Assembly (NCBI GenBank): GCA_045633685.1
Contig: JAZQYU010000057.1
Location: 16,978 to 80,977 of the forward strand
Direction of reading: 5' to 3'
Length of the DNA: 64,000 bases
Source of the DNA: Acutalibacteraceae bacterium
GTDB taxonomy: Bacteria; Bacillota; Clostridia; Oscillospirales; Acutalibacteraceae
Below the pieces are notes generated by a model. It made no database searches. It was not told the DNA's origin and saw nothing but the letters and a program-made list of their open reading frames with translations. Each line of letters begins with the position of its first letter. Positions within the stretch are counted from its first letter, which is position 1. The position numbers were made by a program, and so were the translations under genes. Positions 3,186 through 55,255 of the stretch are shown here, piece by piece.

Positions 3186-3896
3186 TTAGTCATCTGAACC
3201 GCCGGATTTTTTCTCAGCCTCCTGCTGAGCAAGGTATTCTTCAATAGCCTGGCGCTTAACGTCATCAGAAATTTTCTCGGCCTTTGCTGTCATAAACATT
3301 GCAATAAGCTTATATACCTGCCAGATGAAGAAGAGAGCCAAGGGGATAATTACGCAAATCATAAAGCCGAGCTGGCTCTGAAGGAAATCAAGAGCATTGC
3401 CGAAGCCGCTGATTGTGAGACCTTTGACATAATTTCCGCTTTCATCAACACCCGCGCCGATCTGCTTGGCAACAACATCGTCGGGATAAACCTTCTGGTT
3501 ATCCTCTGTTTCCATAGCGTCACCCTTAGTCACATAGTAGTGAACAGAGCCGTCGTTATAAAGCTGCACATCAAGAATTCTATGGGTATTGAAGCCCCTG
3601 ACTGTGTTACCGGCCGCATCCTGCATAAGGGTATAGAAGGTGATAACATCACCGATTTTAAGCTCCTCCTGGGGAACTTTCACTTCCTTGGCGATGATAA
3701 GGTCACCTTTACCGATTGTGGGACTCATTGAATCTGTCTGAACCGAGAACGGAGTGTAGCCGGCTACATTGCCGATACCTGTTCCTGAGCTCTTTGATGT
3801 GAAGGTCATTACGGTTATAGCGATAGCTACAACGATAAGAATAACCAACAAAACGTCTGAAATAACGCCTAAAATACTTTTACCTTTCTGTTCCAT
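3186..3896 (-). CDS. sipW: Signal peptidase I, SipW (ER/archaeal) type, with a C-terminal TM extension
   Basis: It has an N-terminal TM helix. The catalytic Ser box is QTDSMSPTIGKGDLIIAK, the His box is FNTHRI, and the GD box is VTKGDAMETED. A second TM helix lies near the C-terminus, as in SipW. Confidence 0.85.
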   Translation of the reverse strand: MEQKGKSILGVISDVLLVILIVVAIAITVMTFTSKSSGTGIGNVAGYTPFSVQTDSMSPTIGKGDLIIAKEVKVPQEELKIGDVITFYTLMQDAAGNTVRGFNTHRILDVQLYNDGSVHYYVTKGDAMETEDNQKVYPDDVVAKQIGAGVDESGNYVKGLTISGFGNALDFLQSQLGFMICVIIPLALFFIWQVYKLIAMFMTAKAEKISDDVKRQAIEEYLAQQEAEKKSGGSDD

Positions 3897-34633: not shown

Positions 34634-35431
34634 TTACCAGAAAATTATGCCTTCTTCGGTAAGCTTGACCTCCACCTGCTCATCCCCTGAATAAGCTTCA
34701 ATGCAGTCGAAATTTTTCTCAACGCCCCTCACAACGGTTATGTTGTAACCGTCGCTGACGATGAACTCTCCTTGCGGCAGTTTTATGTTCACTTCCGTTG
34801 CACCGAAGAAGTTGCTTTTGCCCGAAAGCTTCAATTCTGCACCTTCAGCAATCCAGCCTTTGGTGTAAATAACCGCAACGTCTCTGTATTCACTGTAATC
34901 AACAAAAACATCATGCTCCTTGTCCTTGTCGCACTCCTTTACCCACTCATAGGCTGTGGGATATTCAACCGCAAGCTCTTCAATTGTGTAAACCTGTTTT
35001 TTAAATTCGCCGATAGGAGAGCTTGAAAAAAGCACCGTACAAACCAGACATACGCACACGGTCAACGGCAAAAGCACATAAAGGGCAATAGCTCCTTTCA
35101 GCGGTGCTTTGCTCTGTTGAACAACAGCTTCTTTTTGCAAACCGGTCAAATCAACCGAACACACGGGGCAGAAATCCCAGCCTGTTTTAACCTCGCCGCC
35201 GCAAGAAGGACACTTGCTGTTTCTGTCATCTTTCTTTATGGCGATGTATATAATGAACCCCAACAAGCTGAGCAAAGAGAGCCACACCCATTTGCCCGCT
35301 TTCATTCCCCTTCTTTGAGCATCTTTAAAAATATAAATTGCTATCACAATGGATGTAATCTGCCACGAAAGAGTGGCAAAAGCAACCAACGCCAACACTC
35401 CGTGCAAAACGAAAAAAGATAAAAAAGCCAT
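34634..35431 (-). CDS. Paralog array member 4: 2-TM module + zinc ribbon + TM + extracytoplasmic domain
   Basis: FKDAQRRGMKAGKWVWL..IIYIAIKK, then CPSCG..x10..CPVC, then a TM helix, then YEWVKECDKDKEHDVFVD..IYTKGWIA..NITVV. Confidence 0.7.
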   Translation of the reverse strand: MAFLSFFVLHGVLALVAFATLSWQITSIVIAIYIFKDAQRRGMKAGKWVWLSLLSLLGFIIYIAIKKDDRNSKCPSCGGEVKTGWDFCPVCSVDLTGLQKEAVVQQSKAPLKGAIALYVLLPLTVCVCLVCTVLFSSSPIGEFKKQVYTIEELAVEYPTAYEWVKECDKDKEHDVFVDYSEYRDVAVIYTKGWIAEGAELKLSGKSNFFGATEVNIKLPQGEFIVSDGYNITVVRGVEKNFDCIEAYSGDEQVEVKLTEEGIIFW

Positions 35432-35451
35432 ATTATGCCTCCCTTAAACAG

Positions 35452-35561
35452 GCTTCTCCTCGAGGAGAAGGGGGACCGCTTGCGGTGGATGAGGTGTTAA
35501 TTTAACACCTGCTTTGACACCTCATCAGTCACTTCGTGACAGCTTCTCCTCGAGGAGAAGC
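35452..35561. mobile_element. 110-bp MITE-like element: two back-to-back double-hairpin terminal inverted repeats with no ORF
   Basis: The left arm (35452-35497) is GCTTCTCCTcgaGGAGAAG + ACCGCttGCGGT + GGATGAGGTGT. The right arm (reverse complement of 35517-35561) is GCTTCTCCTcgaGGAGAAGC + TGTCACgaaGTGAC + TGATGAGGTGT. The 18-20 bp palindrome occurs at 35453-35470 and at 35542-35561. This is the same architecture as the arms flanking the DUF559 gene at 53.05-53.5 kb. Confidence 0.6.
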
Positions 35562-35571
35562 CTGAATCAAT

Positions 35572-35994
35572 TCAGCCAAAGAAAAGCGCTATATGCACTG
35601 CGATAAAAACCAACATTGCAACAACAGAAGCCACTGTGCCGGCCTTCACAAGAGCCTTAACTGAAGGCTTTTCTTCGGGTCTCACTTCTTCAAGCTTTAC
35701 TTTGCATTCAGGGCAAACCTCACAGCCTTCAGGTGTTTTTGCAAAGCACTTGGGGCAAACCTCCTGCAACCTTTTGCGCCTTGCCGCAAGGAATGCGTAC
35801 ACCCCGACAAAGCGGAAAAGAAGGCACATAACCACCCACAAAAAGGTGTTCATTCTGTATTCTTTTGCGCGACGGTATATCAAAATGCTCAACACAATCG
35901 GCACAACCGCATACAGCAAATATAAAAAGCAAGCTATCCAAAAAATCGCCATCAACGGCAAGGTAACAAGTAAGCTTACAAGCATTGCACCCAT
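35572..35994 (-). CDS. Paralog array member 3 (short form): TM module + zinc ribbon + C-terminal TM, no extracytoplasmic domain
   Basis: IYRRAKEYRMNTFLWVV..AFLAARRK, then CPKCFAKTPEGCEVCPEC, then a TM helix. Confidence 0.65.
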   Translation of the reverse strand: MGAMLVSLLVTLPLMAIFWIACFLYLLYAVVPIVLSILIYRRAKEYRMNTFLWVVMCLLFRFVGVYAFLAARRKRLQEVCPKCFAKTPEGCEVCPECKVKLEEVRPEEKPSVKALVKAGTVASVVAMLVFIAVHIALFFG

Positions 35995-36006
35995 ATATTA
36001 TCCCTC

Positions 36007-36387
36007 CTACGAAGAAATTGCAAAAAATGAAAACAACGTCACACCAATGGAAATAATTGCACAAATGATGATAAAAGCCTTGGGTATCAGCTTCATTTTA
36101 GGTCGTACTTCTTCCAACCTTGCATTGCATTCGGGGCAAAATTCACTGCCCTCGGGTGTCCCTGCAAAGCACACAGGGCAGACATCCTGAAATTGACTTC
36201 GCCTTGCATAAAGAAATGCACACAATCCCACAAAATTAAAAACAACCCCCACAATCACCCATAGCTTGGTATTCATTCTGTATTGCTTAGACTTGCGGTA
36301 TATGTATATTCCGATTACACTCACCATAACCGCATACCAGAAATACATAAAAACAGTTGTTATTATCGACACAAGCATTGTGAACAC
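36007..36387 (-). CDS. Paralog array member 2 (short form): TM module + zinc ribbon + C-terminal TM
   Basis: GTG start with GGAGGG 6 nt upstream. IYRKSKQYRMNTKLWVI..AFLYARR, then CPVCFAGTPEGSEFCPEC, then a TM helix. Confidence 0.65.
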   Translation of the reverse strand: MFTMLVSIITTVFMYFWYAVMVSVIGIYIYRKSKQYRMNTKLWVIVGVVFNFVGLCAFLYARRSQFQDVCPVCFAGTPEGSEFCPECNARLEEVRPKMKLIPKAFIIICAIISIGVTLFSFFAISS

Positions 36388-52072: not shown

Positions 52073-52165
52073 AAATGCGTTTCACCCGATGTTGACAAAA
52101 TCCGACAGTTATGGTAATCTCTCATAACAAAGTCTCGGACTTTGAAAATCGAAAGGGGAAATAAT

Positions 52166-52969
52166 ATGAAAAACAAAAATCTACCGAAAATCATTGCTCT
52201 TGCCGTGTGCGCCGTTGTCGTTATCGCGGTGCTTGCCACAAGCTTCACCGTGGTCAAAGCAGGTCACACAGGTGTTGTTCTCACCTTCGGCGCTGTTGAA
52301 GACAAGGTGCTTGAAGAAGGTCTTCACTTCAAGGCTCCCATTGTGCAGAGCGTTGTGCAAATGAACAACCGCACTCAGAAAATCGAAACCGACGGCACCG
52401 CTTCTTCCAAAGACCTTCAGATAATCTCTTACGTTGTTGCGGTTAACTTCCACGTTAACAATACCTCTTCCGCCACTCTTTATCAGAGCGTTGGTATGGA
52501 TTACGGCTCAGTTATCATCGTGCCCGCAATTCAGGAAAGCATCAAGGCTGTGACCGCACAGTACACCGCAGAGGAGCTTATCACAAAGCGTCAGTCCGTC
52601 GGCGACCAGATTAAGACCGCACTTTCCGACAAAATCAATCAATACGGTCTCACCGTTGAAATTTTCAACATTGTAAACTTTGATTTTTCCGAAGAATTCA
52701 ATGCCGCTGTTGAAGCAAAGCAGACTGCTCAGCAGAATGCACTCAAGGCTGAACAGGACCTTGCCCGCATTGAGGTTGAAGCAAAGCAGAAAATTACTCA
52801 GGCAGAGGCCGAGGCCGAAAGTATCAAGCTCATTCAGGAAGCACTTGCAAAATCACCCGACTACGTTGACTATGTAAAATGGAACAAGTGGAACGGCGAG
52901 CTTCCTTCGGTTATGGGCGAAAGCGACATTCTTCTCAGTATGGACGAGCTTAAAAAGAAGGCTGAATAA
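52166..52969 (+). CDS. SPFH/prohibitin (band 7) family protein
   Basis: It has an N-terminal TM helix, then VVKAGHTGVVLTFG and a C-terminal coiled-coil (AEQDLARIEVEAKQKITQAEAEAE). Confidence 0.85.
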   Translation: MKNKNLPKIIALAVCAVVVIAVLATSFTVVKAGHTGVVLTFGAVEDKVLEEGLHFKAPIVQSVVQMNNRTQKIETDGTASSKDLQIISYVVAVNFHVNNTSSATLYQSVGMDYGSVIIVPAIQESIKAVTAQYTAEELITKRQSVGDQIKTALSDKINQYGLTVEIFNIVNFDFSEEFNAAVEAKQTAQQNALKAEQDLARIEVEAKQKITQAEAEAESIKLIQEALAKSPDYVDYVKWNKWNGELPSVMGESDILLSMDELKKKAE

Positions 52970-52983
52970 TCAGGCAAAATTTT

Positions 52984-53021
52984 CACGGGTCGATGAAATT
53001 CATCGACCCGTGTTTTTTGTT
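52984..53021 (+). terminator. Rho-independent terminator (ancestrally shared with convergent argS)
   Basis: CACGGGTCGATGAA / TTCATCGACCCGTG is followed by TTTTTTGTT. Confidence 0.65.
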
Positions 53022-53024
53022 ATT

Positions 53025-53050
53025 ATTACATACTCTCGGGGACAGTGATT
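53025..53050 (-). repeat. Orphan duplicate of the last 7 codons plus stop of argS (left direct repeat of the DUF559 insertion)
   Basis: attacatactctcggggacagtgatt here versus attacatactctcgggaactgtgatt at 53509-53534, a 24/26 match. Both read ITVPESM* on the minus strand, and the two differences are synonymous. Confidence 0.8.
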
Positions 53051-53508
53051 ATGGCTCCCTTGTGTAAAGGGAGCTGTCAGCGAAGCTGACTGAGGGATTG
53101 TTTAACAACAGTATCAATGTATTCGCATACGCCTTCAAAATTGCTGTGAATTTCACTATTGGGTATTCTTATAACCCTTAACCCGTATCCCTCAAGAAAC
53201 GCTGTTCTTATCTCATCGCTTATCTGTTCTTCATCTGTGTAATGCTGTGAGCCGTCAAGCTCGATAACTAATTTTGCTTCGGCAGAATAAAAGTCTGCAA
53301 TATATTTTCCTAACACTTTTTGTCTGGAAAATCTGACCTGATATGTTCTGAGAAAATCATACCAAAGATGTTTTTCTTCTTTAGTCATATTTTTACGAAG
53401 CATTTTTGCGGCAGGAACTATCGCTTTGTTGTGTTTTCTCTGCATTACAATCCCTCCGTCTTTTGCTTCGCAAAATCCACCTCCCTTTACACAAGGGAGG
53501 CTTTTTAA
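53051..53508 (-). mobile_element. 458-bp insertion carrying a DUF559 endonuclease gene, bounded by roughly 50-bp double-hairpin inverted repeats
   Basis: The left arm (53054-53101) is GCTCCCTTgtgtaAAGGGAGC TGTCAGCgaaGCTGAC TGAGGGATTGT. The right arm (reverse complement of 53448-53500) is CCTCCCTTgtgtaAAGGGAGG TGGATTTTGCgaaGCAAAAGACGGAGGGATTGT. It is flanked by the 26-bp argS-tail direct repeats. Confidence 0.7.
53077..53445 (-). CDS. DUF559 domain endonuclease (Vsr/PD-(D/E)xK-like)
   Basis: The start is taken at ATG 53445 (GGAGGG 6 nt upstream, inside the right arm). The sequence LRKNMTKEEKHLWYDFLRTYQVRFSRQKVLGKYIADFYSAEAKLVIELDGSQH..RTAFLEGYGLRVIRI is the classic DUF559 pattern. The track's longer ORF (to 53553) would overlap argS. 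Confidence 0.85.
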   Translation of the reverse strand: MQRKHNKAIVPAAKMLRKNMTKEEKHLWYDFLRTYQVRFSRQKVLGKYIADFYSAEAKLVIELDGSQHYTDEEQISDEIRTAFLEGYGLRVIRIPNSEIHSNFEGVCEYIDTVVKQSLSQLR

Positions 53509-53509
53509 A

Positions 53510-55255
53510 TTACATACTCTCGGGAACTGTGATTCTGAGCATTTCGAGAACATTTTTAACCGTATCTCTTACACAGGCACAAAGATAAATTCTTGCCTGC
53601 ATAAGATTTTCATCGTCGCACTGAACTCTGCATGAGTTGTAGAACTTATGGAAAAGTGTTGCAAGCTCAACAACATATCTTGTAATTCTTGCAGGGTCAT
53701 AGTTCTTGGCGGCTGTTACAATTTCACTTGTGAGTGAAGCAAGGTGACGGATGAGCTCTTTTTCTTCCTCTGCAACAAGAAGCTTAAGGTCTTCAACAGA
53801 GCAGTCTCTCACTTCAATGCCATCTGCGGCAAGCTTTTTGAAAATACTGCAGATTCTTGCGTGAGCATACTGACAATAATAAACAGGATTCTTTGAGCTC
53901 TGTTCAACTGCCAGATCAAGGTCAAACTCCATCTGTGAGCCGGGCTCTCTCATATTGAAAAGGAAGCGGACTGCATCGATAGGAATTTCTTCAAGCAAAT
54001 CAACAAGAGTGATTGCCTTGCCTGTTCTCTTTGACATTCTCACAACCTCACCGTCACGAGTAAGACGAACAAGCTGCATAAGAATAACCTTAAGTCTGTC
54101 GCCGCCAACGCCGATTGCATCGAGGGCACCCTGCATTCTTGCAACGTGACCGTGATGGTCTGCGCCCCAGATGTCGATAGCTGTGTCAAATTTTCTCACT
54201 TCAAGCTTGTTTCTGTGGTAAGCAATATCTGCGGCAAAATATGTGGGAATACCGTTTGCCCTGATAAGAACATCATCTTTGAGCTCAAGCTTGTCGATCT
54301 CGTCCTGAGTTTTACCTGCTTCGAGAAGCTTTTTGGTCTGAATTTCGATATTTTTGTACCACAAAGCACCGTCTTTTTCGTAGGTGTAGCCGTTCTTTGT
54401 GAGAAGGTCGATTGTGTCCATAACCTCACCGCCGTTGTGAAGCACGCTTTCTTTGAACCAAGTGTCATACTCAATGCGGTATTTTGTGAGGTTATCCTTC
54501 ATTGCCTGAATATTTTTGGGAAGAGCAAACTCTGTGAGTGCGGCTCTTCTCTCTTCCTGAGTGGCGTCAATATATTTGTCACCGTAAACATCTGCAAATT
54601 CCTGAGCTCTCACCTTGATATCTTCACCGTGATAGCTGTCTTCGGGAAGCTCAACGGCTTCCTCACCCTTGTAAATCTGCTGATATCTGATATCAAGTGA
54701 AAGGGCAAATTTTTCAATCTGGTTGCCTGCGTCGTTGATGTAAAATTCTTTTTCTACTTCATAGCCTGCATAGTCAAGCACAGCGGCAAGGCAGTCACCA
54801 AGTGCGCCGCCGCGAGCGTTACCCATATGCATAGGACCTGTGGGGTTGGCAGAAACAAACTCAACGTTTATTCTCTTGCCCTCGCCGAAATCTGAACGGC
54901 CGTAATCCTTGCCCTTTGCCTTAACATCCATAAGAATTGCGGCATAATAGCTGCCGTCAAGATAAAAGTTAAGGAAACCGGGGCCTGCACACTCACAGCG
55001 TGCAAAATATGTACCCTCCAGAGAAATATTGGCAACTATTGCGTCAGCAATTTTGCGGGGAGCGCTTCTCAACTCTCTTGCCCAAGCCATAGCCGCGTTG
55101 GTGGAAAAATCACCGTTTGCGCTGTCGGCAGGAATTTCAACATTAAACGCAGTCTGAGGAACAGCGCTGACCTCACCCTTTTCAAAAGCCTTGGTGATAG
55201 CGTTCATAACACATTCGCGAAGCTGTGACTGCACCTGATTTACAATATAGCTCAT
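53510..55255 (-). CDS. argS: Arginine--tRNA ligase
   Basis: The HIGH-type motif reads SANPTGPMHMGNARG and the KMSKS position reads MSKRTG. The DALR anticodon-binding C-terminus ends ITVPESM. Confidence 0.95.
   Translation of the reverse strand: MSYIVNQVQSQLRECVMNAITKAFEKGEVSAVPQTAFNVEIPADSANGDFSTNAAMAWARELRSAPRKIADAIVANISLEGTYFARCECAGPGFLNFYLDGSYYAAILMDVKAKGKDYGRSDFGEGKRINVEFVSANPTGPMHMGNARGGALGDCLAAVLDYAGYEVEKEFYINDAGNQIEKFALSLDIRYQQIYKGEEAVELPEDSYHGEDIKVRAQEFADVYGDKYIDATQEERRAALTEFALPKNIQAMKDNLTKYRIEYDTWFKESVLHNGGEVMDTIDLLTKNGYTYEKDGALWYKNIEIQTKKLLEAGKTQDEIDKLELKDDVLIRANGIPTYFAADIAYHRNKLEVRKFDTAIDIWGADHHGHVARMQGALDAIGVGGDRLKVILMQLVRLTRDGEVVRMSKRTGKAITLVDLLEEIPIDAVRFLFNMREPGSQMEFDLDLAVEQSSKNPVYYCQYAHARICSIFKKLAADGIEVRDCSVEDLKLLVAEEEKELIRHLASLTSEIVTAAKNYDPARITRYVVELATLFHKFYNSCRVQCDDENLMQARIYLCACVRDTVKNVLEMLRITVPESM

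Follow-up and report, generated by a model that had tools for sequence, protein, structure and literature searches.

A hairpin-armed DUF559 nuclease gene behind argS in an Acutalibacteraceae bacterium is probably one copy of a compact mobile element family

A 64,000-nucleotide stretch of DNA from an Acutalibacteraceae bacterium (assembly GCA_045633685.1, contig JAZQYU010000057.1, positions 16,978 to 80,977 of the forward strand), referred to here as the window, was analyzed at the 3' end of argS, the gene for arginyl-tRNA synthetase. A short block with hairpin-forming arms and one open reading frame (ORF) of the DUF559 family lies between the stop codon of argS and a bidirectional terminator, beyond which follows a convergent SPFH/Band_7 gene. 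The last codons of argS are present on both sides of this block. The coordinates of all features are collected in Table 1.

Table 1. Features at the argS site and the gene-less relative, with positions in the window
Feature	Coordinates	Strand	Remarks
argS (arginyl-tRNA synthetase), intact	53510-55255	-	stop codon 53510-53512; ORF list and Pfam Arg_tRNA_synt_N, tRNA-synt_1d, DALR_1
Target-site duplication, copy in use	53510-53535	-	last 7 argS codons, stop and 1 nt
Mobile element proper, 454 bp	53053-53506	-	blastn of L001 and L003 against the window; ends conserved in about 150 loci
5' (left) arm	53446-53506	-	A-tract, hairpin 1, hairpin 2, inner repeat
Left-arm hairpin 1	53479-53501	-	GCCTCCCTT-GTGTA-AAGGGAGGT
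Left-arm hairpin 2	53461-53475	-	TTTTGC-GAA-GCAAAA
Left-arm inner repeat		-	GGAGGGATTGT; contains the ribosome-binding site (RBS) GGAGGG (53452-53457)
DUF559 / Vsr-like PD-(D/E)XK nuclease ORF, 122 aa	53077-53445	-	last 8 codons and stop within the 3' arm
3' (right) arm	53053-53101	-	inner repeat ACAATCCCTC, hairpin 2, hairpin 1
Right-arm hairpin 2	53076-53090	-	GTCAGC-TTC-GCTGAC
Right-arm hairpin 1	53054-53074	-	GCTCCCTT-TACAC-AAGGGAGC
Target-site duplication, orphan copy	53025-53050	-	24/26 nt identical; joined to the native A-tract and terminator
Bidirectional intrinsic terminator	52984-53012	.	serves argS, now also the element, and the convergent SPFH/Band_7 gene
SPFH/Band_7 gene, convergent to argS	52142-52969	+	
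Empty argS site, reconstructed			...GAATCACAGTTCCCGAGAGTATGTAATAATAACAAAAAACACGGGTCGATGAA...
Gene-less unit (MITE)	35449-35564	+	same architecture, other hairpin-1 sequence; between two minus-strand genes

Each arm of the element folds, as a single strand, into two hairpins with z values of -5.2 and -5.8 relative to shuffled sequences. The sequence of hairpin 2 differs between the two arms of the window copy and its pairing is kept. Hairpin 1 of each arm resembles a terminator for transcripts that exit the element, and on the + strand the left-arm hairpin 1 scores as a terminator together with its T-run. A scan with Pfam profiles returned DUF559 as the only ORF match in the element and no transposase or recombinase family (DDE, HUH, serine, or tyrosine). 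This layout, with the 122-aa protein as the only product, its RBS in one arm, two hairpins per arm, and conserved pairing in hairpin 2, had been described in a first-pass annotation of the window and was confirmed.

The 122-aa ORF matches DUF559 (PF04480) at profile positions 6-108 of 109 with a score of 100.1 bits (cut-off 20.6; E = 8e-29). A match in the PDB is found for entry 3HRL, the structural-genomics protein NGO0050 (E = 5e-11). The AlphaFold2 model has a predicted local distance difference test score of 78 and a predicted template-modelling score of 0.71. In a Foldseek search the best matches to this model are 3HRL and the catalytic domain of I-Bth0305I (3R3P, E = 1e-4); PvuRts1I is found among the further matches, and Vsr (1CW0) ranks lower. 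Residues D51, E62, D64, and H68 are invariant in 25 homologues. The modelled protein displays the Vsr-type alpha/beta nuclease fold with conserved acidic and histidine residues. The motif reads E62-L-D64-G-S-Q-H68 (ELDGSQH) rather than EDxHD, and the 122 residues comprise the nuclease core only.

The 3' end of argS reads, on the minus strand, ...ATC ACA GTT CCC GAG AGT ATG TAA. As had been seen in the sequence at first pass, this end (7 codons and the stop codon) is present twice at a distance of 484 bp, with 24 of 26 nt identical and both differences synonymous. The direct repeat, TTACATACTCTCGGG[A/G]AC[T/A]GTGATT, is found at 53510-53534 and 53026-53050 with 2 mismatches, and no comparable match was obtained in 100 shuffles (0 expected). 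Both copies translate as ITVPESM* from the minus strand and differ at third codon positions. The orphan copy is followed by an A-rich tract, and the terminator stem begins 13 nt away from it, not 4 nt as originally reported. The unit between the repeats had been given as 458 bp; it is indeed an insertion, and the portion that recurs at other loci is the 454-bp block, which is separated from the flanking repeats by 2-3 nt on each side.

Exact-sequence searches found no record of the window's DUF559 protein, ArgS, or P0001, and related proteins and loci were collected with near-identical cluster representatives in their place. The protein P0003, which is 98% identical to that of the window, is encoded behind a Peptidase_S11/PBP5 gene and between the same arms. 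In blastn alignments the window shares with two loci of this PBP5 site (L001, 98.8%; L003, 98.0%) only the block 53053-53506, from arm to arm. Since this is the sole block common to unrelated loci, it is identified as the mobile unit. A further copy, 93% identical, lies inside an ABC-F gene (L174). The protein search returned more than 8000 DUF559 homologues at E < 1e-10, and relatives numbered at least 552 in a scan of species-representative genomes and 403 in a scan of metagenomes. Most of the close homologues are on contigs under 1 kb, which is consistent with a repeat that breaks metagenome assemblies. The same ends appear in all of the approximately 150 loci that were read. Gut Oscillospiraceae and related Clostridia carry the element family in abundance; the phage and plasmid collections yielded arm fragments only. 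The search for other copies that share the arms thus yielded hundreds, and the mobile insertion proposed at first pass is borne out, as one copy of a multi-copy element with near-identical blocks at unrelated loci.

The 145 loci with enough flanking sequence fall into 71 distinct upstream contexts, and several metagenome-assembled genomes (MAGs) yield two loci each. With so many targets, the site-specific insertion that had been suggested from the window alone is not supported. A co-oriented ORF ends within 200 nt upstream of the element, or inside its arm, in 63 of the 71 contexts, compared with 42% for random positions.

Repeats that flank the element were scored by comparing the 70-100 nt upstream of the left arm with the sequence downstream of the right arm, and mismatched locus pairs served as the control. 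Scores of 29-86 were obtained against a control 99th percentile of 22-23. Significant repeats are present at all three sites of a young subfamily, whose proteins are at least 92% identical to that of the window, and at two further insertions. Their lengths are 26-29 nt at the argS site (4 assemblies), about 33 nt at the PBP5 site (4 assemblies), where KQDRNYKPKH* is encoded twice, 22 nt, perfect, in the ABC-F gene of L174, about 58 nt at L038 (the last 7 codons, the stop codon, and 37 nt of the 3' untranslated region), and 21 nt, perfect, around a gene-less unit at L009. Because different local sequences flank near-identical elements, the repeats were made on insertion and were not carried by the element; they are long target-site duplications of variable length. 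At 21-58 nt they are much longer than the classical short target-site duplication, as the first-pass annotation had held. A GC-rich hairpin or terminator begins 2-24 nt past the repeat in 5 of 5 cases. Together with the excess of co-oriented upstream ORFs, this identifies the 3' end of a transcribed gene, just before its terminator, as the usual landing place. A microhomology or template-switch model was rejected, as inspection by eye of the junctions of the youngest insertion (L174) revealed no microhomology. At L038 (3393-3480) a second partial right end, consisting of the last ~25 nt of the ORF and the right arm, follows the complete element, which points to an earlier tandem pair or to copying that was aborted.

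At the argS site, the element and the orphan copy are read through at both junctions in four assemblies (the window, L083, L085, and L004), and a fifth contig (L086) stops within the left arm. The ArgS proteins of relatives are 82-100% identical to that of the window. Four lineages (L084, L167-171, L172, and L173) have argS without the element. In these a single argS end without an orphan copy is followed by an A-tract and a terminator or by the next gene. The comparison with element-free relatives that the first-pass annotation had proposed therefore gave single argS ends, in loci with other downstream genes. Since the orphan is absent wherever the element is absent, the repeat is tied to the element and is not a piece of a larger segmental duplication, an objection that had been raised beforehand. 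Among relatives, synteny breaks on the 3' side of argS, where the downstream neighbor is SPFH/Band_7, comM, a gene for an unknown 243-aa protein, licD, or secA depending on the lineage; the last four are found in the element-free relatives. The DUF559 gene of L085 (3811-4154) is a pseudogene with an internal deletion, in a flank 94% identical to that of the window, and the intact 93%-identical copy of L174 is from the same sample.

It had also been proposed that the element restores the C-terminus of its target gene. This would make it a site-specific or homing element that bears a replacement gene 3' end, like the integrases that use tRNA genes or icd, and the argS repeat would be a designed repair. 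The repeat does span the stop codon at argS, PBP5, and L038, the differences between copies are mostly at third positions, and the element lies at the end of an essential gene that is unharmed. In L174, however, the repeat is wholly within the coding region and the native ...EEMNEDKQ* end is displaced behind the element, which contradicts this reading. The ABC-F gene (L174:2400-2960) now reads ...EEIAQASLV*, with its stop supplied by the TAA in the loop of hairpin 1, so that the last 6 residues of the protein, MNEDKQ, are swapped for the arm-encoded IAQASLV. The upstream ORF ends at the same hairpin-1 loop TAA in 17 further loci (e.g., L022, L012, and related loci). Unrelated local repeats flank near-identical elements at different genes in 71 upstream contexts, and no recombinase gene is present among the Pfam matches. 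The orphan of L083 equals its functional copy apart from the stop codon, as is expected from plain duplication followed by drift, and that of L004 carries the non-synonymous changes ATC>GGA and AGT>ATT. Overall, 5 of 8 orphan changes are at third positions (hand count; binomial estimate p about 0.09). On these grounds the view that the orphan is under coding constraint was rejected, and the two silent differences in the window look like changes compatible with drift. We regard designed repair as very unlikely. The argS gene is intact because the duplicated stretch happens to span its stop codon, and selection on an essential gene probably helped to keep it so.

The nuclease gene is under purifying selection, with dN/dS values of 0.05-0.16. 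The synonymous divergence (dS) of the element is 3 to 5 times below that of the flanking host genes. Between the window and L083 at the argS site, dS is 0.51 for the host gene, argS, and 0.17 for DUF559; the corresponding values are 0.64 (PBP5 gene) and 0.136 for L001 and L003 at the PBP5 site and 0.61 and 0.44 for the window and L004 at the argS site. For the window and L174, to which a host dS is not applicable, the DUF559 value is 0.64. The values of 0.44 and 0.64 indicate that silent sites of the element are free to diverge. In sliding windows, identity increases on crossing the element borders, and the window copy is nearer to the PBP5-site copies of other genomes (dS 0.04-0.09) than to the orthologous copies at argS. 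The insertions are old, since the orphans are shared and partly decayed. The low element dS beside the host genes therefore shows that copies have been renewed after the host lineages split, through gene conversion between copies or re-invasion. As regards a homing endonuclease gene, the element is of younger age than the neighboring host genes, argS ends that lack it were seen, and a precise empty allele was not recovered. Of the earlier suggestion, a homing-like component survives in the low divergence of the elements relative to their hosts; multiple targets and target duplications are not homing features.

Purifying selection and the terminator-like hairpin 1 would also be expected of an immobile host repair gene with regulatory or terminator hairpins, beside which the argS repeat would be an unrelated local duplication. 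A Vsr-like DUF559 protein of Caulobacter, VsrA, which works with a cytosine methyltransferase, has been proposed as a repair nuclease (PMC12907096). Multi-copy, arm-bound, and context-hopping behavior is at odds with such a role, and the single-copy, syntenic distribution that it would require is not seen. The family is present in 71 upstream contexts with several copies per MAG, the same DNA block is found at unrelated loci, the repeat is found only alongside the element, and gene-less derivatives exist. No methyltransferase adjoins the DUF559 gene at this locus, where the neighbors are argS and the SPFH gene. A host repair gene is accordingly an extremely improbable explanation.

To examine the arms, 85 distinct left arms were aligned. 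Hairpin 1 with its GTGTA loop is at least 90% invariant, as is the inner sequence GACGGAGGGATTGT. In hairpin 2, double changes are present at 6 of 6 pairs, and the observed covariation was reached by 0 of 500 shuffles. Gene-less units of 116-125 nt that have inverted ends and no ORF are miniature inverted-repeat transposable elements (MITEs). Those of 120-125 nt with identical arms and a ~22-nt center are found at seven loci (L001, L009, L011, L028, L037, L047, and L063); a target duplication was seen solely at L009. Freed from coding, hairpin 2 of the right arm covaries in the MITEs as well, and the RBS-like inner repeat is kept despite the lack of an ORF. The derivation of the MITE center as an internal remnant of the ORF was rejected (best p about 0.04, in 1 of 7). 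No Rfam family matches the arms.

The window itself contains a MITE at 35.45 kb that had been noted at first pass as a gene-less relative, and it proved to be a true one. It comprises the two hairpins, an inner inverted repeat of 11 nt, and a right arm of the form '..CCTCAtcaGTCAcTTCGtGACAGCT-hairpin-CC'. Its folding energy is -41.7 kcal/mol (z = -10), and the right-arm core TCAGTCAcTTCGtGACAGCT is nearly identical to that of the DUF559 element. In the IMG/VR collection, the exact left arm is present in 21 viral contigs (L177-L197), in solo units, arrays, or MITEs; none of these contigs has a DUF559 ORF, and the tandem arrays include other hairpin-1 variants. A solo unit that resembles the right arm (about 89% identity across 47 nt) lies in a repeat-rich intergenic region of a cultured member of the Oscillospiraceae, Vescimonas fastidiosa pMM35_01 (L176:1490-1550).

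Several larger arrangements were also observed. Composite arrays in L011, L028, L037, L047, and L063 (about 3400-3700) consist of a DUF559 element, a conserved spacer, and a gene-less MITE. In L161 (1900-2100) the element is followed by a MITE of another hairpin-1 subfamily, and the same upstream module precedes each unit. A 45-nt 'repeat' of L161 was rejected as a clean target duplication; it is the conserved upstream module that stands before the DUF559 element and the neighboring MITE, with a partial third copy. At the PBP5 site, the left arm in L001 (2893-2956) and L002 has an extra ~60-nt hairpin-rich insert between hairpins 1 and 2, which is absent at the same site in L003 and L175.

The frequency of solo arms, arrays, and MITEs far from any DUF559 gene, including those of the viral contigs and Vescimonas, raises the possibility that the arms are mobile palindromes of the REP (repetitive extragenic palindromic) or MITE type moved in trans by an enzyme encoded elsewhere. 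DUF559 would then be a passenger that came to lie between two arms, such as a free-standing homing endonuclease able to invade gene-less MITEs, or a nuclease for repair or defense. The nuclease fold is that of homing endonucleases, the low element dS fits homing into arm pairs, and PD-(D/E)XK nucleases are not known to transpose DNA alone. Against this possibility, the RBS and the last 8 codons of the gene are arm sequence, and gene and arms travel as a single block with sharp common borders. In the ~170 loci that have a DUF559 gene, the arms are not linked to any other candidate enzyme. The RBS-like inner repeat also persists in MITEs that have no ORF, which suggests that it is a recognition site of the element's own system. 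We consider movement in trans unlikely, although it is the main rival explanation.

Our favored interpretation is that 53053-53506 is probably one copy of a family of compact mobile elements whose movement would be initiated by the nuclease and completed by host repair. An autonomous-looking copy consists of a 5' arm, one gene for a Vsr-like (DUF559) protein of ~122 aa, and an inverted 3' arm. The 5' arm combines a palindrome with invariant sequence (hairpin 1), a hairpin 2 kept for structure only, and the 11-nt inner repeat, which doubles as the RBS; gene-less forms of the arms are seen as MITEs and as palindromic units, solo or in arrays. In an ancestor of the species group, a copy presumably inserted into the A-rich sequence that separates the argS stop codon from the terminator and duplicated 26-29 bp of the target, the second copy of which is a decaying by-product. 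The element can be expressed by read-through because it has the same orientation as argS.

The nuclease is envisaged as the element's own enzyme, which probably acts as a dimer on the invariant 21-bp palindromes or on the target. Its nicks or breaks would be turned into copying of the element by host recombination and repair. The usual outcome may be gene conversion between copies or into gene-less arms; repair of arm breaks from another copy would explain why the copies evolve in concert and why filled arms coexist with gene-less ones. Insertion de novo would be the rare outcome, at staggered breaks 20-60 bp apart that are filled in, just upstream of a terminator hairpin. Breaks on opposite strands at this spacing, followed by fill-in, would be unlike known insertion sequence (IS) chemistry.

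Several observations weigh against this interpretation. All of the loci are from metagenome assemblies. The precise empty argS-Band_7 site was not found among the contigs of element-free relatives. These loci all have other downstream genes, and argS dS places the nearest of them (L084) as an apparent outgroup, which accounts for the missing allele. The lower element dS may partly reflect larger recombination tracts, as in L001 versus L002. Most older copies (about 80% protein identity to that of the window) have no flanking repeat, and many of them (L006-L082) carry two extra conserved flanking modules. A common target motif was not found at the repeat edges, where only A/T-rich ends and the GC-rich hairpin 2-24 nt downstream are seen. 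We know of no strand-transfer activity for a 122-aa PD-(D/E)XK nuclease, and the joining steps are for this reason unexplained.

The two extra modules of the ~80% subfamily were characterized separately. A 3' tail of about 130 nt after the right arm forms three more hairpins (…CTGACAAGCACTGCATTTGTGGACACAAATGC…GAAAACTGTCCTTTAGAGTGACGCTCTA), and an upstream module occupies about 45 nt before the left arm (AAATTCCAATTTRTCGAGAAA…). The motif of the upstream module recurs in inverted orientation within the target duplication at the L009 MITE. The modules may be outer ends, fossil copies of the target, or a target that is preferred. Alignments that would make them two halves of an old duplication or an outer inverted repeat are weak (scores 14-16).

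The element was compared with known systems and fully belongs to none of its closest analogues. With REP/REPIN sequences and their RAYT (REP-associated tyrosine transposase) genes it has in common short palindromes that exist singly, as inverted pairs, and in arrays, mostly behind genes, a sole associated protein gene flanked by two inverted units, and hairpins kept by covariation. It falls outside that family because its protein is a 122-aa PD-(D/E)XK (Vsr-like) nuclease, whereas theirs is an HUH/Y1 transposase. RAYT genes are usually single-copy; the DUF559 gene is multi-copy and mobile, and its insertions leave target duplications of 21-58 nt. Pairs of IS and MITE likewise have inverted ends, autonomous and gene-less forms that share them, flanking target repeats, and many contexts. 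Inverted ends are present here, as are target duplications, at 5 independent insertions, although these duplications are atypical in length and in how much they vary; the element encodes no DDE, HUH, serine, or tyrosine transposase. IS duplications are typically 2-14 bp, whereas those of the element are far longer and variable, and its ends are structured hairpins that hold the RBS and the C-terminus of the gene.

Transposon Tn7 uses the end of glmS, and certain prophages duplicate the 3' end of icd. The element resembles these in that it lies between the 3' end of an essential gene and the terminator of that gene, and it resembles the icd prophages in a duplicated gene 3' end with mostly silent differences. 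In contrast to both, it encodes neither a targeting protein nor an integrase, the DNA that is duplicated comes from the local target and not from the element, and many different genes are used, some of which lose their C-terminus. It is not a site-specific integrative element either, as it encodes no recombinase and its flanking repeats differ at argS, PBP5, ABC-F, and L038.

Vsr-like homing endonucleases of the EDxHD family such as I-Bth0305I, both free-standing and intron-borne (PMC3239194, PMC2677866), have the same nuclease fold. They too are small selfish nuclease genes at conserved host genes that are not inactivated, and the lower age of the element relative to its host gene is what spread by double-strand break repair would produce. 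I-Bth0305I has the EDxHD motif and extra domains (PMC3239194). The protein encoded by the element has the motif ELDGSQH and no extra DNA-binding domains, and its gene is intergenic behind argS, outside any intron or intein; none of the three traits of the EDxHD homing endonucleases (motif, multidomain architecture with DNA-binding regions at the N-terminus, and intron, intein, or split-intein residence) is thus found. The element further differs from them in its hairpin arms, MITE derivatives, many unrelated targets, and target duplications, which homing does not make.

The literature search returned no published description of the element family and no paper that ties DUF559/PF04480 to mobility. 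The family therefore appears to be undescribed, analogous to REP/RAYT and IS/MITE pairs and apparently built on a Vsr-like nuclease. To our knowledge, variable target duplications of 21-58 nt upstream of terminators match none of the element classes compared here, and they may reflect a new insertion chemistry. It is conceivable, though we hold it doubtful at present, that DUF559 elements constitute a new class of prokaryotic transposable elements. The sole protein of such a class would be a Vsr-like nuclease of ~120 aa that acts on palindromic ends and pre-terminator sites and mobilizes both itself and gene-less repeats with duplications of 20-60 bp.

DUF559 is one of the commoner unexplained families of small bacterial nucleases, and its members usually carry the annotation 'endonuclease domain-containing protein' as isolated genes. 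In gut Clostridia it forms the coding core of a multi-copy element that has hairpin arms and is accompanied by MITEs and solo repeats derived from it, which turns a blank annotation into the testable hypothesis of a nuclease-driven selfish element. Were the new-class reading true, a biological role would be assigned to a very large DUF family, as a REP/RAYT-like system that operates with a different enzyme. Some insertions rewrite host C-termini through the stop codon in the hairpin loop, and essential genes such as argS are left unharmed. Should the invariant 21-bp palindrome be what the nuclease recognizes, the enzyme may serve as a compact tool with sequence or structure specificity.

The surroundings of the MITE at 35.45 kb were also inspected. 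On the minus strand (34634-36387), two genes in tandem (35572-35994 and 36007-36387) code for small membrane proteins that resemble each other and have zinc-ribbon-like Cys-x2-Cys pairs. On the other side of the MITE, which is antisense to all three genes, lies a third gene (34634-35431) whose Cys motifs are similar.

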